Part shown: positions 23,910 through 31,150 of the stretch, piece after piece | How positions within the stretch are numbered: the first letter of the stretch is position 1 | Layout: each line of letters begins with the position of its first letter | From: Christensenella sp. UBA941 | Lineage (GTDB): Bacteria > Bacillota > Clostridia > Christensenellales > UBA941 | Length of the DNA stretch: 45,899 bases | NCBI GenBank assembly: GCA_002293365.1 | Contig: DBDD01000179.1 | Location: forward strand, 1-45,899 | Direction of reading: 5' to 3' | Translations under genes and position numbers: made by a program | The notes under the pieces: model-generated | What the model was told of the DNA's origin: nothing | The model's database searches: none | Seen by the model: only the letters and a program-made list of their open reading frames with translations

Positions 23910-24329
23910 TCATATTTTTTTTACATATTCGACCGTTGCGGCCAGTTGCTCCGCCATGCAAGCTTTTTCTTCATTCTCGCCGCCCGTCGGTTCCGCCGCC
24001 TTCCGCCATTCGTCATACATGATGATCTCTTTCTCGCTGGCGACGGCGCAGCCGTACTCATACCGCGCACCCATACTATCCTTCCAGTCATTCAGGAAAC
24101 AGGCTATGTCGCACGCTTCAAGCATCGCGCCTGTTATGCGCAGGCATCCTATGTAATCCAGACCGTAGCGGGGTAGAGCCTCCGCAGGATTGAGGACGAG
24201 ATAGCCCGCTTTTTCAAGCTGATGCTTGGCTTCGTAAAATTTCGACCAATACCATTCGTCGCCGGTTATCTTGCCCGAGAGAAATACCGACCGCTGAACG
24301 CCGTTTGTTGCTGCATCAATCATTTTCAT
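23910..24329 (-). CDS. DUF4406-like protein (nucleoside 2-deoxyribosyltransferase-like fold)
   Basis: The segment VFLSGKITGDEWYWSKFYEAKHQLEKAGYLVLNPAE matches the (I/L)SGxxTG...F..A...L...G..V.NP signature of DUF4406. It has an extra C-terminal tail of about 30 aa. Confidence 0.55.
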   Translation of the reverse strand: MKMIDAATNGVQRSVFLSGKITGDEWYWSKFYEAKHQLEKAGYLVLNPAEALPRYGLDYIGCLRITGAMLEACDIACFLNDWKDSMGARYEYGCAVASEKEIIMYDEWRKAAEPTGGENEEKACMAEQLAATVEYVKKI

Positions 24330-24337
24330 TCCTCCCG

Positions 24338-25003
24338 CTAAACAGCCTGTTTTCCTTGAATGCGCACAGGCAGCAAAACAGCGTCACCCGCCTCACACGT
24401 AAAATACAAGGGTTTATTCGGCGATTCGGTCGCAAATGCTTTCGCGTCCGGGAATGCCGTAAGAATATCGATTAGGTAATTTGCTTGCACGGCGGGTAAA
24501 TTACCTCCGAAATCGTAGTTTATGAAACCGCCTATACTCTCGGCTTTTTTGATTCTATAATGCGCTTTCAATTCCGCCATTGTTGGAAGATCGAGAGGAA
24601 CAGTCGCCCCTTCCATGGCTTCATCGAATACCGTCTTCATACCGTCGCTGGGAATACCCTGCGCTGATACCATCTCTATCGGACTGTTTAGCCTTATCGC
24701 CCGGTGTCCGTCACATACGCACTGTTTGCCTTCACAATCGAACGCGCCCCTTAATTTATCCTTTCCGGCGGTTTTGATAATGGCTTTCATAGCCTTGGCG
24801 ACATTCGCCTTGCCGCTTGCTTTATTTGCCTCCATGCGCATATCTTCGCGGAGCGCCGCGCAAAGCTCGATGAGCGGCCCTATATCCATCACACTGCATA
24901 ATCTTTTAGGAAATTCCGTAATCGCGCGGTCGATGTTTACTACGCTTTCGCGGTTACAAAGGTATTCGTAAATTGTTTGGTATATTGTGTTTTTATTAGG
25001 CAT
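24338..25003 (-). CDS. DNA polymerase III beta-clamp-like domain protein (truncated, about 221 aa)
   Basis: I moved the start to ATG 25003, which has AAGGGAGA upstream. KQCVCDGHRAIRL resembles the clamp motif ATDGHRL. The C-terminus NYLIDILTAFPDAKAFATESPNKPLYFTCEAGDAVLLPVRI resembles the clamp C-terminal strand pattern (YL.D.L......P......MP.R). Confidence 0.5.
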   Translation of the reverse strand: MPNKNTIYQTIYEYLCNRESVVNIDRAITEFPKRLCSVMDIGPLIELCAALREDMRMEANKASGKANVAKAMKAIIKTAGKDKLRGAFDCEGKQCVCDGHRAIRLNSPIEMVSAQGIPSDGMKTVFDEAMEGATVPLDLPTMAELKAHYRIKKAESIGGFINYDFGGNLPAVQANYLIDILTAFPDAKAFATESPNKPLYFTCEAGDAVLLPVRIQGKQAV

Positions 25004-26120
25004 TATTTGTTCTCCCTTCAATACGTGCCGCCCGGCGACTGCGTTTCTCAATCTCCGCGATACAAGCCAGAACCACATACGCCCACTGGGGTACAACGGC
25101 ATTCCCCAGTATCTTTAGCCGCTTTGGCCGCTGTTGCTTTACTTTGGTGACGCGCGGCGGCTCGTAGGCGTATTGCTCTTGTTTGCGCCCCGCCGGCCAT
25201 CTGTGCGCGTCCAGCCGATCGGATACCCCATGAGCAATTCCACCCAATCGGGATTCAACATGCCGCCCGCCCCGTAAACATCCGTCCGCAAGCTTCGCGA
25301 TTGCCCGCCGCCGTGGCTGCCCTTTGCGTCCGCTGCGTTTGGCGTCGCGTACATAAGCACGTTCCCCGGAAGAGTGTCGCGCTGTGCTTGTGATGGTGGG
25401 AGAGTCGCATTCTTCTCGTCCTGAGCCGTTGGGGTCGCCCATAGCGCCGCCGTCTGCAAGTCCTCTCCGCCCTGCCGCGTCTCCGTATTCGACGGGCCTT
25501 TCCCGCTTTGTGCGCGCGGCGTCGGCCACATCACCGCATGATGCAGGCTCACCGCATGGCGCTCCGTCGCCGTCTTCCGCCTGATCGAGCCGTTGCGGGC
25601 GTTCATCGTGTCGGGCGTGGGCCACGAGGCAGAGCCGGTCCCTTTTGTGCGGCGCACCAACGTCGGCAGCTCCGTACACACACCATCCAGCATCGTACCC
25701 CAGTTTGGCCAGCTCCCGGAGTATGTCTCCAAAGAGCCGTCCAGCATCAACTGACAATAACCCTGGTACGTTTTCCGCCATAAACCATCTTGGCCTAACA
25801 TCGCGAACGATTCGAAGGCATTCCGGCCAGCGATTACGCGGGTCAGCAGCCCCATTACGCTTTCCAGCAACCGAAGCACATTGACACGGCGGGCTGGCGA
25901 GGATGATATCGATTCCATTGGGATCAATGTTGTTTGCTCGCAATCTATCAAGAGTAACCTCCGTGTCGTGCTTAAATATGGGCTTGCCGGGATGACGCTG
26001 TTCCAAAAGCGCTCGGCATTGCGCGTCGCATTCGCACATAGCGGCGGTTTCGATGCCCGCCCAGCTCGCCGCCAGGGATAGGCCGTCGCAGCCGCCGGAG
26101 TAGAGGGAGAGGGCGATCAT
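24996..26120 (-). CDS. dcm: DNA (cytosine-5) methyltransferase (possibly frame-disrupted in its target-recognition region)
   Basis: The listed 374-aa frame carries motif I YSGGCDG, motif IV PPCQ, motif VI ENVPG, motif VIII APHKRDR and motif X LGNAVVPQ. Residues about 168-305 in this frame are Arg/Gly/Asp-rich low complexity. See the alternate-frame feature. Confidence 0.8.
   Translation of the reverse strand: MIALSLYSGGCDGLSLAASWAGIETAAMCECDAQCRALLEQRHPGKPIFKHDTEVTLDRLRANNIDPNGIDIILASPPCQCASVAGKRNGAADPRNRWPECLRIVRDVRPRWFMAENVPGLLSVDAGRLFGDILRELAKLGYDAGWCVYGAADVGAPHKRDRLCLVAHARHDERPQRLDQAEDGDGAPCGEPASCGDVADAARTKRERPVEYGDAAGRRGLADGGAMGDPNGSGREECDSPTITSTARHSSGERAYVRDAKRSGRKGQPRRRAIAKLADGCLRGGRHVESRLGGIAHGVSDRLDAHRWPAGRKQEQYAYEPPRVTKVKQQRPKRLKILGNAVVPQWAYVVLACIAEIEKRSRRAARIEGRTNNA
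25023..25037 (-). promoter_or_regulatory. GC-rich start-associated box
   Basis: This is the exact 15-mer acgtgccgcccggcg. It lies 19 nt before start 25003, inside the dcm 3' end. Confidence 0.5.
25208..25624 (-). other. Alternate-frame coding signal inside dcm: WPTP-type repeats plus an LNPxWVExLMGxPxGWT motif
   Basis: ORF 25139..25951 lies in a different frame from dcm. It contains four spaced repeats (SWPTPDTMNARNG, MWPTPRAQSGKG, LWATPTAQDEKN, MYATPNAADAKG) and then LNPDWVELLMGYPIGWT. In my recollection these are the hallmarks of the variable region and motif IX of phage-type C5-MTases. Confidence 0.5.
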
Positions 26121-27208
26121 ACCACCATCCTCATCTGATCGTCAGTAATCCCCGCCCTCGCCTTACGGCAATACTCATCGTACAGCTGACGATAACGATA
26201 GCTGTCGCCAAAAACGTTCCACGCGGCTTTTACAACGTTGGGCTCATAGGGCCGTATCTTCTCCAGGTCGCTCACGGCGCTTGCCGATATGGAGCACCCG
26301 CAGCAGCCCGTGCGCATCAAGCCGTAAACCTCGTAAGCGTCCGAATAGCGGATTTTATGATAAGCCTTATACCAACGCTTGTCCGCGTCCGAAACGTAGT
26401 AAAGGGGCCGGAGCCGATACTTTCCGTCGTCCTGCTGAGTAAAGCACAAGGACGTATTATCCTTGCGGGGGACCGACCGCATGCCGCCCTCATCCCGGCG
26501 CTCCCCCGTGATGATCATGTCAAAAGGTATCTGAGCAGTGTGGGCAACTTGCTTTTTGCAATAATCGCAGCATTTCGCGCTGATCGTAAACGGAATAGGA
26601 TTCTCCTTGATGAAATCCAGCATATACGGCGACGAGCCAATAACGAGCTGGATATCCGGGCGCGGCTCCCCGGCGGTATTACAACCGCAAAGGAAATTGA
26701 TTGTCGCTGTGCATTTCGGGTATCGTTCGCCCAGCTCCGCCCGCTTTGCCGCCTTATCCTCCGCGTTCGCGTATTCGTCCGCGATGGAAAGCGGAATATG
26801 CTTCTTCTGCACGCCTTCCAAACCCTTCGACATGATCTTGGATACAAACGGCTGCCCGTGTTTCCGCACGGCCTGGACGATGCCTATCTTCGGCCTATAC
26901 GTATGGATTTTTACGCCGTACAGCTTCGCCATATCGTGAACCTGGCGCTTCGTTGCATCCATCTCCAGGCCCGTGTTGAAAAAGCAGTATTCGACAGGAG
27001 CGAACATCGGAGACGTAGACCGTACCGTCTCAATCAGGTGCATCATGATGTCGCTGTCGCTTCCGCCGGAATAGGAGCATATCGCGTTCGGGTATTCCAC
27101 GAGCCGCCGCGTGATTATGCTTTTTATCGCCTCGAATTTGCGCGGCGCGTCGTAGTCGGCGTATAGAGGCCGGTCGGTGTAGACCTTGCTTTTGAATTCG
27201 GCTCTCAT
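26117..27208 (-). CDS. PP-loop ATP-pyrophosphatase / PAPS-reductase-like protein with a Cys-rich C-terminal part
   Basis: I moved the start to ATG 27208, which overlaps the upstream stop as ATGA. The sequence has the PP-loop CSYSGGSDSD and later Cys clusters (FLCGCN, CCDYCKK, TGCCGCS). It also overlaps the dcm start as ATGA. Confidence 0.6.
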   Translation of the reverse strand: MRAEFKSKVYTDRPLYADYDAPRKFEAIKSIITRRLVEYPNAICSYSGGSDSDIMMHLIETVRSTSPMFAPVEYCFFNTGLEMDATKRQVHDMAKLYGVKIHTYRPKIGIVQAVRKHGQPFVSKIMSKGLEGVQKKHIPLSIADEYANAEDKAAKRAELGERYPKCTATINFLCGCNTAGEPRPDIQLVIGSSPYMLDFIKENPIPFTISAKCCDYCKKQVAHTAQIPFDMIITGERRDEGGMRSVPRKDNTSLCFTQQDDGKYRLRPLYYVSDADKRWYKAYHKIRYSDAYEVYGLMRTGCCGCSISASAVSDLEKIRPYEPNVVKAAWNVFGDSYRYRQLYDEYCRKARAGITDDQMRMVV

Positions 27209-27555
27209 GCGCCCCACTCCAACAAATCCGCCCCCGCCATATCGCCCCAATCCGCCGCCTCGCCCGGCTCCTCGTCCAGCCAATTCCGCCCGAATATCTG
27301 CATGAACTCCTCGCGCGTTCCATGCACACGCTCAAAAGCGCGCTGTCCGTCGCATTTTAGGGCGTAATCTTTTTCGGCGTTATGATGCACGCCCCGCGGG
27401 GGCTCGTTATGCTCGTCGTGCGCAAGGTAGACGAACAGGCCGTATATCTCGCTCCATTTGCGGTTCGCGCCGCCGAAAACGTGATGCTTTTCAAGGCTAT
27501 CCGTCCGGCCCGAGAGGTAACTCTCACGCCCGTTTTGCATGATACTTTTTTTCAT
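27205..27555 (-). CDS. Conserved phage protein, unknown function
   Basis: The 116-aa ORF has GAGG upstream. The pattern HHVFGGANRKWSEIYGLFVYL...GVHHN...LK..GQRAFE...GTREEFMQIFGRNWL recurs in Firmicutes phages as far as I recall. The Zn-ligand positions appear degenerate here. Confidence 0.4.
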   Translation of the reverse strand: MKKSIMQNGRESYLSGRTDSLEKHHVFGGANRKWSEIYGLFVYLAHDEHNEPPRGVHHNAEKDYALKCDGQRAFERVHGTREEFMQIFGRNWLDEEPGEAADWGDMAGADLLEWGA

Positions 27556-29864: not shown

Positions 29865-30396
29865 GGCCGACCTCACCGTCGAGCCCGAACGCCCATTTAG
29901 AACATTCGGCGCAAGCGCTATGATCCCGCTCCACTTCTACGCAATCCCGACCGTACATGCATGTGTTAGGCAGACGCGCATATTTTCTGACAGCTTGCAA
30001 AAGCAGAGCGTTTTCATCAGCTTGGCGCTCTATCGTATCCAGTAGCTCCGGTAGCGCGTTTCGCGCAGCAACCATGATAATTGCGTCGGGATGGTCGATA
30101 TAATCGTCAAACCCGTCGTGATGCTCCTTGCCGGGATAAGACCTGGCGAGCTTATCGGCGCGTACCATACCGCGACCACGCCTTTCGCCGACGGGCCCGT
30201 CATACTTTTCGTAAACCTGAAACACCGGGCAAGCGTCGCTCATACCCCATCTGGCGAACTGCATCACGTAATACATGCCGCTGTGTGTGGTGACGATCTG
30301 CGCCAATTTACAGCCTGTACGCATATCCCACATCCAAGGACCCGGCGTGGCGGCGCGTTCTTGCTCCCGAAGAGCCTTAAATTCCGTATTATTCAT
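29857..30396 (-). CDS. Ead/Ea22-like early protein
   Basis: An ATPGPW motif lies near the N-terminus and a Cys cluster near the C-terminus. The call is weak. Confidence 0.35.
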   Translation of the reverse strand: MNNTEFKALREQERAATPGPWMWDMRTGCKLAQIVTTHSGMYYVMQFARWGMSDACPVFQVYEKYDGPVGERRGRGMVRADKLARSYPGKEHHDGFDDYIDHPDAIIMVAARNALPELLDTIERQADENALLLQAVRKYARLPNTCMYGRDCVEVERDHSACAECSKWAFGLDGEVGHE

Positions 30397-31150
30397 CGCG
30401 CTTACCCCGCTTGCGAACCTTGATGATACGCGTCTTTACCATCGTGCCGCTCTCGGAAAAAGCGCCTGCGGGCAGCTCATGGATTTCAGCGCCGACTACT
30501 TCGAGCCATGTGCGGAATACGACCGACTTTTTATTCGTTCTGAAAAACGGGCTCTCGCTGACGATTGAGACGAGGATTCCGCCGGGCTCCAACAAGCGGA
30601 AGGCGTGATAGATGTGGTCTATATCCTGTTGTCGGGAAAACGGCGGGTTCATAACGATTCTGGGATAATGCATACTTATTTCAGGGTCGAGACGCAGGAA
30701 GTCGTCACAATATACAGGGTACGGCTTTCCGGCATGCCGTTTCGCCATCTCGAAATTAATTTCAAGGCAAGTAACATTTTTTATGCGCTCGTATATAACG
30801 TCCGCTAAATCACACTCTCCGCACGACGGCTCCAGCACGGCGCGCGCTGCCTCTAGCCTCGCCATGTCGCACATCCGCTCTGCAATTGGGCGCGGCGTAG
30901 GAAAGAACTGAAAAACCTTCTTCGCATCGACTACCTCGCCGGATACGACGAGCGCGTCTAGCAGCTCGGCGGGGTCTTCATCGAACACATGGCCCTTCGC
31001 TTTGCGATTCCACTTGCCGCCGATGCTTTCGAGGCACTTATTAACCGCCTCGTAGGTTTTGCGTTCTAACTGCCCCTCGGGTAGATAGGCGACATTGCCG
31101 TCGGTCCGGCAATTCGATAAAATATTAAGAATATTATCAGGTATTCTCAT
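30389..31150 (-). CDS. SAM-dependent DNA N6-adenine methyltransferase (orphan)
   Basis: The sequence has motif I VLEPSCGECD and motif IV MNPPFS. No adjacent restriction gene is present. Confidence 0.65.
   Translation of the reverse strand: MRIPDNILNILSNCRTDGNVAYLPEGQLERKTYEAVNKCLESIGGKWNRKAKGHVFDEDPAELLDALVVSGEVVDAKKVFQFFPTPRPIAERMCDMARLEAARAVLEPSCGECDLADVIYERIKNVTCLEINFEMAKRHAGKPYPVYCDDFLRLDPEISMHYPRIVMNPPFSRQQDIDHIYHAFRLLEPGGILVSIVSESPFFRTNKKSVVFRTWLEVVGAEIHELPAGAFSESGTMVKTRIIKVRKRGKRDE

Follow-up and report, generated by a model that had tools for sequence, protein, structure and literature searches.

A phage cytosine methyltransferase gene of Christensenella probably encodes two polypeptides in overlapping reading frames

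Results

We analyzed a 45,899-nucleotide (nt) stretch of DNA from Christensenella sp. UBA941 (GenBank contig DBDD01000179.1, assembly GCA_002293365.1; here called the window). The window is a phage or prophage, in which genes for a portal, a large and a small terminase, a replication initiator, and a PAPS-reductase-like protein flank a DNA methylase gene. This methylase locus very likely encodes a C5 DNA cytosine methyltransferase of two polypeptides, with one stretch of DNA read in two frames. One open reading frame (ORF A, alpha) carries the catalytic motifs and motif X, and a second (ORF B, beta), nested wholly within it, carries target-recognition repeats and a motif-IX-like element (Table 1). 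Among relatives, both frames are conserved as open, each segment of the gene has its own selected frame, the beta start is conserved, and the organization is distributed across the family. From these observations, we infer that beta is translated separately in this organism and that the two chains assemble and are active.

Alpha contains C5 methyltransferase motifs I, IV, VI, and VIII in a single frame, and a motif X of the form G-N-x-V-x-P follows at its C terminus, where a hidden Markov model (HMM) of the C-terminal module matched in frame 0. An initial annotation had reported both ORFs, these motifs, and a low-complexity middle of ORF A, and we confirmed all of them on the minus strand. R, G, A, and D make up 75 of the 137 residues from 169 to 305. 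The Pfam DNA_methylase match (PF00145) was confined to alpha residues 10 to 171 (E = 1.7e-36; profile positions 9 to 164 of 324), and TIGR00675 (dcm) scored 88 bits against frame A, under its cutoff of 100.65, because only half of the profile was matched. A PDB sequence search aligned motifs I to VIII of alpha with M.HaeIII and M.HhaI over residues 3 to 170 (E = 1e-12 to 8e-11), and alpha matched PHROG family phrog_363 over residues 2 to 363. In the C-terminal part of alpha, W308, P309, E320, P321, R323, G339, and N340 were invariant in 14 relatives. Local guanine-plus-cytosine (GC) content is 0.60. Across the gene, the third frame contains 16 stop codons and frame A none, and frame B, open from the second codon onward, meets no stop before its own at 25139.

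Motif IX and the recognition domain are absent from frame A, and the motif-IX-like element LNPDWVELLMGYPIGWT and the repeats are conserved in frame B, in a region where the Pfam profile has no alignment. The W/Y-x-T-P repeats of beta are spaced 32, 29, and 30 residues apart, and the L, N, P, V, E, M, G, P, W, and T columns of the element that follows them are nearly invariant in 87 beta-type proteins. The four regularly spaced repeats followed by this element had been noticed in the initial annotation; coordinates and homology matches both bear this out, along with the view that the target-recognition and motif IX part is encoded in the alternate frame. In a database of 5.8 billion proteins, the frame-B peptide alone matched 170 predicted proteins, down to E = 6e-31, and an exhaustive search matched 4,795 cluster representatives, which refutes the suggestion that the resemblance is coincidental. 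The window beta also matched phrog_1008, annotated as "DNA methyltransferase" (E = 3.6e-26), as did gp50 of Paenibacillus phage Diva (1e-73) and gp78 of Mycobacterium phage TygerBlood (2e-79). No family among the Pfam and NCBIfam profiles matched frame B, and a DNA-level search of the gene against phage genomes found no match. The length of the beta tail after GWT varied from 1 to 23 codons among relatives.

Each frame also carries shadows of the other. The strings VADA, GGLADGGAMGD, G-x-G-R-E-E, and RLGG-x-A-x-G-x-x-x-RLD of the alpha middle recur in many more distant ORFs; these are the -1 translation of W-P-T-P, A-Q-D-x-K-N-A-T-L-P-P-S-Q, and L-N-P-x-W-V-E-x-L-M-G-x-P-x-G-W-T. The conserved motifs in the N-terminal part of beta (EQLTLF..D.LASL, MTVTSG.K, GSLVRMLL, LTWK, and PRT.GT.S) were considered as an independent domain and rejected, because they are +1 shadows of alpha PCQPFS.AGK, DDRHLWPE, ENV.G, DLE, and APH.R.R.

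Table 1. Features of the methylase locus in window coordinates
Feature	Position	Strand	Description
Alpha (ORF A)	24996..26120	minus	374 aa, ATG start; catalytic large domain, unselected linker, and motif X module
Alpha N-terminal catalytic segment	25617..26120	minus	motifs I, IV, VI, and VIII; selected frame A
Motif I, YSGGCDG	26082-26102	minus	frame A
Motif IV, PPCQ	25881-25892	minus	frame A
Motif VI, ENVPG	25761-25775	minus	frame A
Motif VIII, APHKRDR	25635-25655	minus	frame A
Alpha linker	25200..25616	minus	residues ~169-307, R/G/A/D-rich; -1 shadow of the beta recognition region, stop-free
Alpha C-terminal module	24996..25199	minus	WPAGRKQEQYAYEPPRV, then motif X, then a terminal helix
Motif X, LGNAVVPQ	25086-25109	minus	frame A, residues 338-345
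Beta Shine-Dalgarno-like GGAGG	25958..25962	minus	inside alpha codons T-E-V; 6 nt upstream of TTG
Beta start TTG	25949-25951	minus	alternative ATG at 25916-25918
Beta (ORF B)	25139..25951	minus	270 aa, TTG start, +1 frame, wholly inside alpha
Beta leader	25625..25951	minus	~109 aa, overprinted on alpha motifs IV-VIII; kept open
Beta target-recognition region	25259..25624	minus	four W/Y-x-T-P repeats; selected frame B
W/Y-x-T-P repeats	25613-25624, 25517-25528, 25430-25441, 25340-25351	minus	B residues 110, 142, 171, and 201
Motif-IX-like element LNPDWVELLMGYPIGWT	25208..25258	minus	beta residues 232-248
Beta tail after GWT	25139..25207	minus	22 codons and stop

Selected frame in each segment of the gene

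Homology searches with frame B and with a spliced A-B-A model had been proposed in the initial annotation, and both found related proteins. The closest relative, P0001, was found with the spliced model; its locus (L130) lies in an independent metagenome assembly (GCA_003324335.1). It has 90% amino acid identity to the window over the catalytic domain, with the same layout and the same "low-complexity" middle in frame A.

We compared the window with L130 segment by segment. In the catalytic segment under the beta leader, substitutions at positions 1, 2, and 3 of the A codons numbered 13, 8, and 26, with residue changes at 10 of 109 positions in A, 29 of 109 in B, and 33 of 109 in the third frame. 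Over the recognition region and motif IX, the counts were 12, 2, and 0, and 13 of 139 residues changed in A versus 2 of 138 in B. Since position 1 of A is position 3 of B, 12 of the 14 changes in this segment are synonymous in B. The C-terminal module gave counts of 1, 5, and 7, with changes at 6 of 43 residues in A and 9 of 42 in B. The catalytic and C-terminal segments thus show third-position bias in frame A, and the pattern across segments indicates that the order of selected sequence is A, then B, then A. The figures for frame B and the third frame under the catalytic segment also bear out an earlier suspicion that SWPNWGTMLDG, which frame B reads over the nucleotides encoding LGYDAGW, is a fortuitous resemblance; it is a +1 shadow of a conserved alpha motif and not homology.

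In the recognition regions of 20 disjoint Bacillales-type pairs, we observed 0.342 changes per codon in frame A and 0.344 in a null frame, versus 0.171 in frame B. The fourfold-degenerate sites of B in this region diverged at 0.29, and the alpha linker therefore imposes little constraint. The "low-complexity" middle of alpha is an unselected shadow, held only free of stops. The sequence of the beta leader was without detectable constraint in the window's clade and was constrained in the Bacillales relatives.

Open frames and the internal start of beta

The openness of both frames was examined in 45 nonredundant nested loci (GC content, 0.40 to 0.61) with synonymous shuffles. Frame A had no stop across the recognition region in any of the 45 loci, where shuffles led us to expect 0.8 to 14.3 per locus (probability of no stop, <0.0005 to 0.42 per locus). 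Frame B was open for about 100 codons upstream of the recognition region in all 45 (probability, 0.001 to 0.43), in a test that is partly post hoc in that its upstream limit was set by the observed ORF. The third frame of these loci contained 2 to 13 stops. Summed over loci, log10 P was -95 for frame A and -62 for frame B, although these sums overstate independence because of the shared phylogeny of the loci.

In all 45 loci, the beta start was found at +163 to +214 nt of alpha, just upstream of the motif IV shadow, and a Shine-Dalgarno-like GGAGG, GAGG, or GGGGTGA preceded it in most. Within the window's clade, L130, L131, and L132 have GGAGG inside the conserved T-E-V-T codons of alpha, followed after 9 nt by ATG. 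Divergence at fourfold-degenerate alpha sites in the Bacillales pairs was 0.35 to 0.38 where alpha is read alone versus 0.10 under the beta leader (Fisher P = 7e-26). In 15-codon bins, it lay at 0.32 to 0.41 before the start codon of beta, dropped to 0.06 exactly there, and ranged from 0.06 to 0.18 thereafter. Such a step in the synonymous rate of alpha is the signature expected of a translated, constrained second frame that starts there. The synonymous-rate profile proposed in the initial annotation was thus informative for the Bacillales pairs, with no step-down in the window's clade. For that clade, the conserved Shine-Dalgarno site and start, together with the openness of the frame, suggest that beta is translated from the upstream start.

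Distribution and layouts among relatives

From reference genomes and viral contigs, we collected 127 related loci. To these we added the window and two Paenibacillus phage loci, and in the three forward frames of all 130 we located matches to three HMMs, for the catalytic N terminus, the B recognition region with motif IX, and the C-terminal motif X module. In 90 of the 130, the catalytic, B, and motif X matches lay at offsets of 0/+1/0, the nested layout of the window; these came from termite-gut, Bacillales, and Paenibacillus phages, and the layout occurred down to a GC content of 0.40. Another 26 had a 0/+1/+1 layout, a sequential split in which alpha stops just after motif VIII. The remaining 14 had other layouts: nine lacked a B match, a motif X match, or both (several being cut by a contig end), L113, L127, and L095 differed in their offsets, L067 is a 1-nt variant of L006 to L008, and L060 is a fusion, through an indel, that lacks motif VIII.

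Outside the 130-locus set, inspection found the nested layout in phages SEN4 (Salmonella), ESSI2_ev129 (Escherichia), and ABMM1 (Acinetobacter) and in the Escherichia coli 40EC prophage. The "dcm" genes of Gram-negative phages (L134, L135, L136, and L137; P2-like and other) hold a nested +1 ORF with GWPTP repeats and LNPE..WLMGLPD.W. Only the outer gene is annotated, by the Prokaryotic Genome Annotation Pipeline (PGAP) in RefSeq for the 40EC prophage (L137, 1309-2199) and in the submitters' records for three phages. A search of complete E. coli genomes with the ESSI2 phage gene gave only two partial matches. Phage Diva, also inspected outside the HMM-mapped counts, has gp50 nested at +1 in the methylase gp49, with a stop-rich third frame and a gene GC content of 0.47; the Diva authors gave gp50 the label "g49 internal gene," and the Paenibacillus phage literature that we searched does not discuss the nested gene. 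The gp79/gp78 "DNA methylase" pair of phage TygerBlood (L138, 777-1872) is a sequential +1 split of the same enzyme, in which GWVT and motif X belong to gp78, whose TTG start falls on the first LLPTP. Several further mycobacteriophage records likewise have two adjacent methylase genes over the matched region.

True single-chain forms also exist. In P0087 and P0316, the catalytic domain, W-P-T-P repeats, GWT, and motif X are colinear in one frame, and the spliced model of the window scored 133 bits against P0316, whereas frame A alone scored 87 bits. The expectation from phage Dcm-type enzymes that these motifs lie in one polypeptide thus holds for these two proteins and fails for most relatives that we examined. 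L060 (2-1084), P0209, P0222, and P0339 were considered as further single-frame forms and rejected, since all are fusions produced by indels, with motif VIII lost or the frames mixed. P0339, P0209, P0222, P0359, L060, and L067 are chimeras of the alpha and beta frames that switch elsewhere, such as after motif IV or VI, with loss of motif VIII. These chimeric database proteins probably arose from nested genes through indel mutation or sequencing error, and alignments of the family could be misled by them.

A subgroup of nested loci (L018, L044, L090, and L111) has an extra alpha-frame segment between GWT and Q-x-E-W-E-P-P/S-R-V. It reads R/W-G-M/L-N-P-L-D-A/S-L-x-x-F-I/V-x-x-Y-P-Q-P-A-L-M-G, and the beta stop lies three codons after GWT. 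L131 (741-2459) and L132 (1-2282) belong to the window's clade and have a large N6/N4 methyltransferase gene (PF01555) upstream of the nested methylase, separated from it by one or two small genes.

Proposed enzyme and comparison with known systems

In the enzyme that we propose, the full-length frame A product, alpha, would provide the S-adenosylmethionine-binding and catalytic large domain, with motifs I to VIII in its N-terminal part and motif X in its C-terminal part. A linker of about 140 residues would join these parts; its sequence would be irrelevant, and its lack of stops would allow ribosomes to reach motif X. Beta would begin in the +1 frame about 57 codons into alpha, at the internal Shine-Dalgarno site and TTG, and would read a leader of about 109 residues over alpha motifs IV to VIII before the W-P-T-P target-recognition domain and motif IX. 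By analogy with M.EcoHK31I, alpha and beta would then assemble into an active enzyme. The frame switches thought necessary in the initial annotation would not be needed if two chains arise from two starts. The functional part of beta is not a protein that was overprinted de novo; it is the recognition module of the enzyme itself, displaced into another frame. The earlier suggestion of a genuine overprinted gene was therefore right in essence, with this qualification as to its functional part.

Passages in the published literature (PMC2836561 and PMC3404938) describe M.EcoHK31I of E. coli HK31 (Lee, Kam and Shaw 1995) as an enzyme whose beta subunit is encoded wholly within alpha in another frame. 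In these accounts, alpha has motifs I to VIII and X, beta has motif IX, both are needed for activity, and N-terminal deletions of beta weaken its association with alpha. M.AquI of Agmenellum quadruplicatum is described in PMC3404938 as a two-polypeptide enzyme of sequential form. We likened the window gene to M.EcoHK31I by layout and by these descriptions, not by sequence. The window beta also lies wholly inside alpha, at an offset of +1 that recurs in the 90 nested loci, and the motifs are divided in the same way, with I to VIII and X in alpha and IX in beta. An independent start for beta is suggested by the conserved start and Shine-Dalgarno site and by the rate step in Bacillales, which the window's clade does not share. 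The reported effect of the M.EcoHK31I beta N terminus on association fits the constrained beta leader of the Bacillales relatives. M.EcoHK31I is part of a restriction-modification system, whereas the window gene is of phage or prophage origin and adjoins a PAPS-reductase-like gene; we made no search for a restriction endonuclease gene beside it.

M.AquI and the TygerBlood gp79/gp78 pair resemble the window gene in being split after motif VIII, with a second part at +1 that carries L/W-P-T-P repeats and a GW(V)T motif IX. They differ in that their beta also holds motif X and their alpha stops just after motif VIII, an arrangement found in 26 related loci and in TygerBlood but not in the window. 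Because motif X of the window is in the alpha frame, beta is fully nested and alpha must be read through the beta recognition region. Compared with the single-chain enzymes M.HhaI and M.HaeIII, the catalytic motifs I to VIII are alike, whereas the recognition and motif IX module of the window lies outside the catalytic frame. The window beta matches phrog_1008, and Diva gp50 is nested just as the window beta is; the annotations of phrog_1008 and gp50 state no mechanism.

Discussion

Weighing a two-chain enzyme against other explanations

Several observations weigh against a two-chain enzyme in the window. Beyond the two limits on the openness tests given above, openness of the off-frames in the window alone is modestly improbable (P = 0.19 and 0.03). 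The canonical beta ATG is mutated to ATA in the window, so the start must be the neighboring TTG, one codon upstream, or the downstream ATG. Suppression of the synonymous rate over the beta leader was not seen in the window's clade (0.49 versus 0.61; P = 0.15), nor in a close pair within it (fourfold divergence, 0.16 versus 0.15). With the spliced models, the Pfam match was not extended into motifs IX and X, and none was found in beta, so that the profile check proposed in the initial annotation succeeded for the catalytic part of frame A and failed for frame B and the spliced extension. A PDB search with the spliced model likewise matched the N-terminal catalytic half only. Structure prediction gave a predicted local distance difference test score (pLDDT) of 35 for the spliced model as a single sequence and of 58 for beta with an 87-sequence alignment, in which only motif IX was confident (85 to 88). 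Finally, the passages on M.EcoHK31I place its recognition domain in alpha, whereas selection in the window places it in beta.

One alternative is double programmed recoding, in which a +1 shift just after motif VIII and a -1 shift just after GWT would yield one active polypeptide. The three selected segments, when joined, are colinear with the single-chain P0087 and P0316, and the junctions are tight: W-x-T-P starts no more than three to four codons from R-x-R-V-F-I, and relatives with a short target-recognition domain have motif X a few codons past GWT. Moreover, in phages of Actinobacteria, Firmicutes, and Proteobacteria, the recognition module almost always sits at +1. Against this, a programmed frameshift would be expected to have a junction signal and no independent downstream start, and we found neither a conserved slippery nor a stall motif at either junction in 30 representatives, whereas a Shine-Dalgarno site and start lie about 110 codons upstream. 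Recoding would need neither frame A to be open over 50 to 200 codons nor frame B to be open for about 100 codons upstream behind its own start, yet both hold in 45 of 45 loci. Furthermore, the synonymous rate of alpha drops at the beta start and not at the junction, and the characterized analogues M.EcoHK31I and M.AquI are two polypeptides. The first W-P-T-P codons also share nucleotides with the motif VIII strand of alpha (R-x-R-L/V-F/C-I/L-V), and a fused product therefore could not hold both in full. Recoding, one of the options raised in the initial annotation, is thus unsupported, and we consider a single recoded polypeptide very unlikely.

A two-chain enzyme could also be accompanied by a single-chain form, if regulated recoding at the junction of motif VIII and W-P-T-P (with a shift back after GWT in nested genes) added it beside alpha and beta. 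The near-universal geometry of a +1 shift and return may reflect more than inherited history and may also support regulated recoding. We judge this addition very unlikely; if it were true, the extra form could tune methylase dosage or specificity during infection.

Alternatively, alpha alone might be the enzyme, with its R/G/D/A-rich middle as a novel recognition region and frame B as an untranslated relic of the ancestral frame. Gene callers and PGAP annotate alpha only in most genomes, and the published passages on M.EcoHK31I assign the recognition domain to alpha. However, the alpha middle of the Bacillales pairs changed at the null rate and frame B at half that rate, and in the window's clade, 13 residues of the recognition segment had changed in A and only 2 in B. 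An untranslated relic would lose its third-position bias, open frame, and conserved start, and alpha lacks a motif IX. An enzyme of alpha alone is therefore highly improbable.

Decay or an assembly artifact, with two compensating single-base indels in a single-frame methylase and the 374-residue ORF as an accident of high GC content, is exceedingly improbable and, as first proposed, refuted: the modest improbability of openness in the window alone, its local GC content, and the real indel variants of the family (L067, L060, P0209, P0222, and P0339) would fit it, but the layout recurs in the independent assembly of L130 and in 90 of 130 loci at GC contents down to 0.40, every segment is under purifying selection in its own frame (the frame-B middle in the window's own lineage included), and there are no premature stops.

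Extent and annotation of the split layout

The split layout is an obscure type already known from one E. coli enzyme, reported in 1995. It is far more widespread and more systematically misannotated than the literature suggests, and both its reach across the family and the assignment of the recognition domain to beta appear to be underdescribed. In the literature that we searched, nested beta genes were not described as a trait of a phage methylase family, and only M.EcoHK31I and M.AquI turned up. The two-frame split appears to be common and ancient in the Dcm-type methylases of Firmicutes, Actinobacteria, and Proteobacteria phages. The protein usually deposited, alpha alone, has a meaningless middle third, and the domain that determines specificity is encoded by a +1 ORF that lacks annotation. 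Alpha-only deposits therefore mislead family models, REBASE-style classification, and the prediction of specificity and structure. Our results also suggest that the location of the recognition domain in M.EcoHK31I should be reexamined.

With its nested, sequential, and fused forms, the family offers a good natural system in which to study the survival of a frameshifted gene as a pair of interacting chains. Its dual-coding signature is unusually clean, in that the selected frame swaps twice per gene and the synonymous rate falls exactly at the internal start.

Neighboring genes and other features of the window

The gene directly upstream of the methylase (26117-27283, minus strand) is PAPS-reductase-like (Pfam PAPS_reduct, phrog_424), and its stop overlaps the alpha ATG (ATGA). 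A PAPS-reductase-like gene also lies upstream of the methylase in L130 (1513-2604), and in both loci it stands in place of the PF01555 methyltransferase gene. Downstream, the longest ORF (24338-25102, minus strand) has no Pfam or PHROG match and overlaps the 3' end of the methylase by 107 nt; its more likely start is an internal ATG (about 25001-25003) that overlaps the methylase stop (ATGCCTAA). Two genes downstream of the methylase, a 139-residue ORF (23910-24329, minus strand) matches nucleoside 2-deoxyribosyltransferase (phrog_355, E = 1e-17).

Farther upstream, a 253-residue ORF (30389-31150, minus strand) matches domains of very large phage proteins, some of which are annotated as DNA methyltransferases (phrog_9133, 11358, 15406, and 6263; E down to 1e-59), and may be a second DNA-modification gene of the same module. 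Between 34001 and 36000, the GC content is 0.39 to 0.42 versus 0.50 to 0.60 elsewhere, and the GC and AT skews flip sign at about 34 to 38 kb, which may mark a module boundary or a change of strand.

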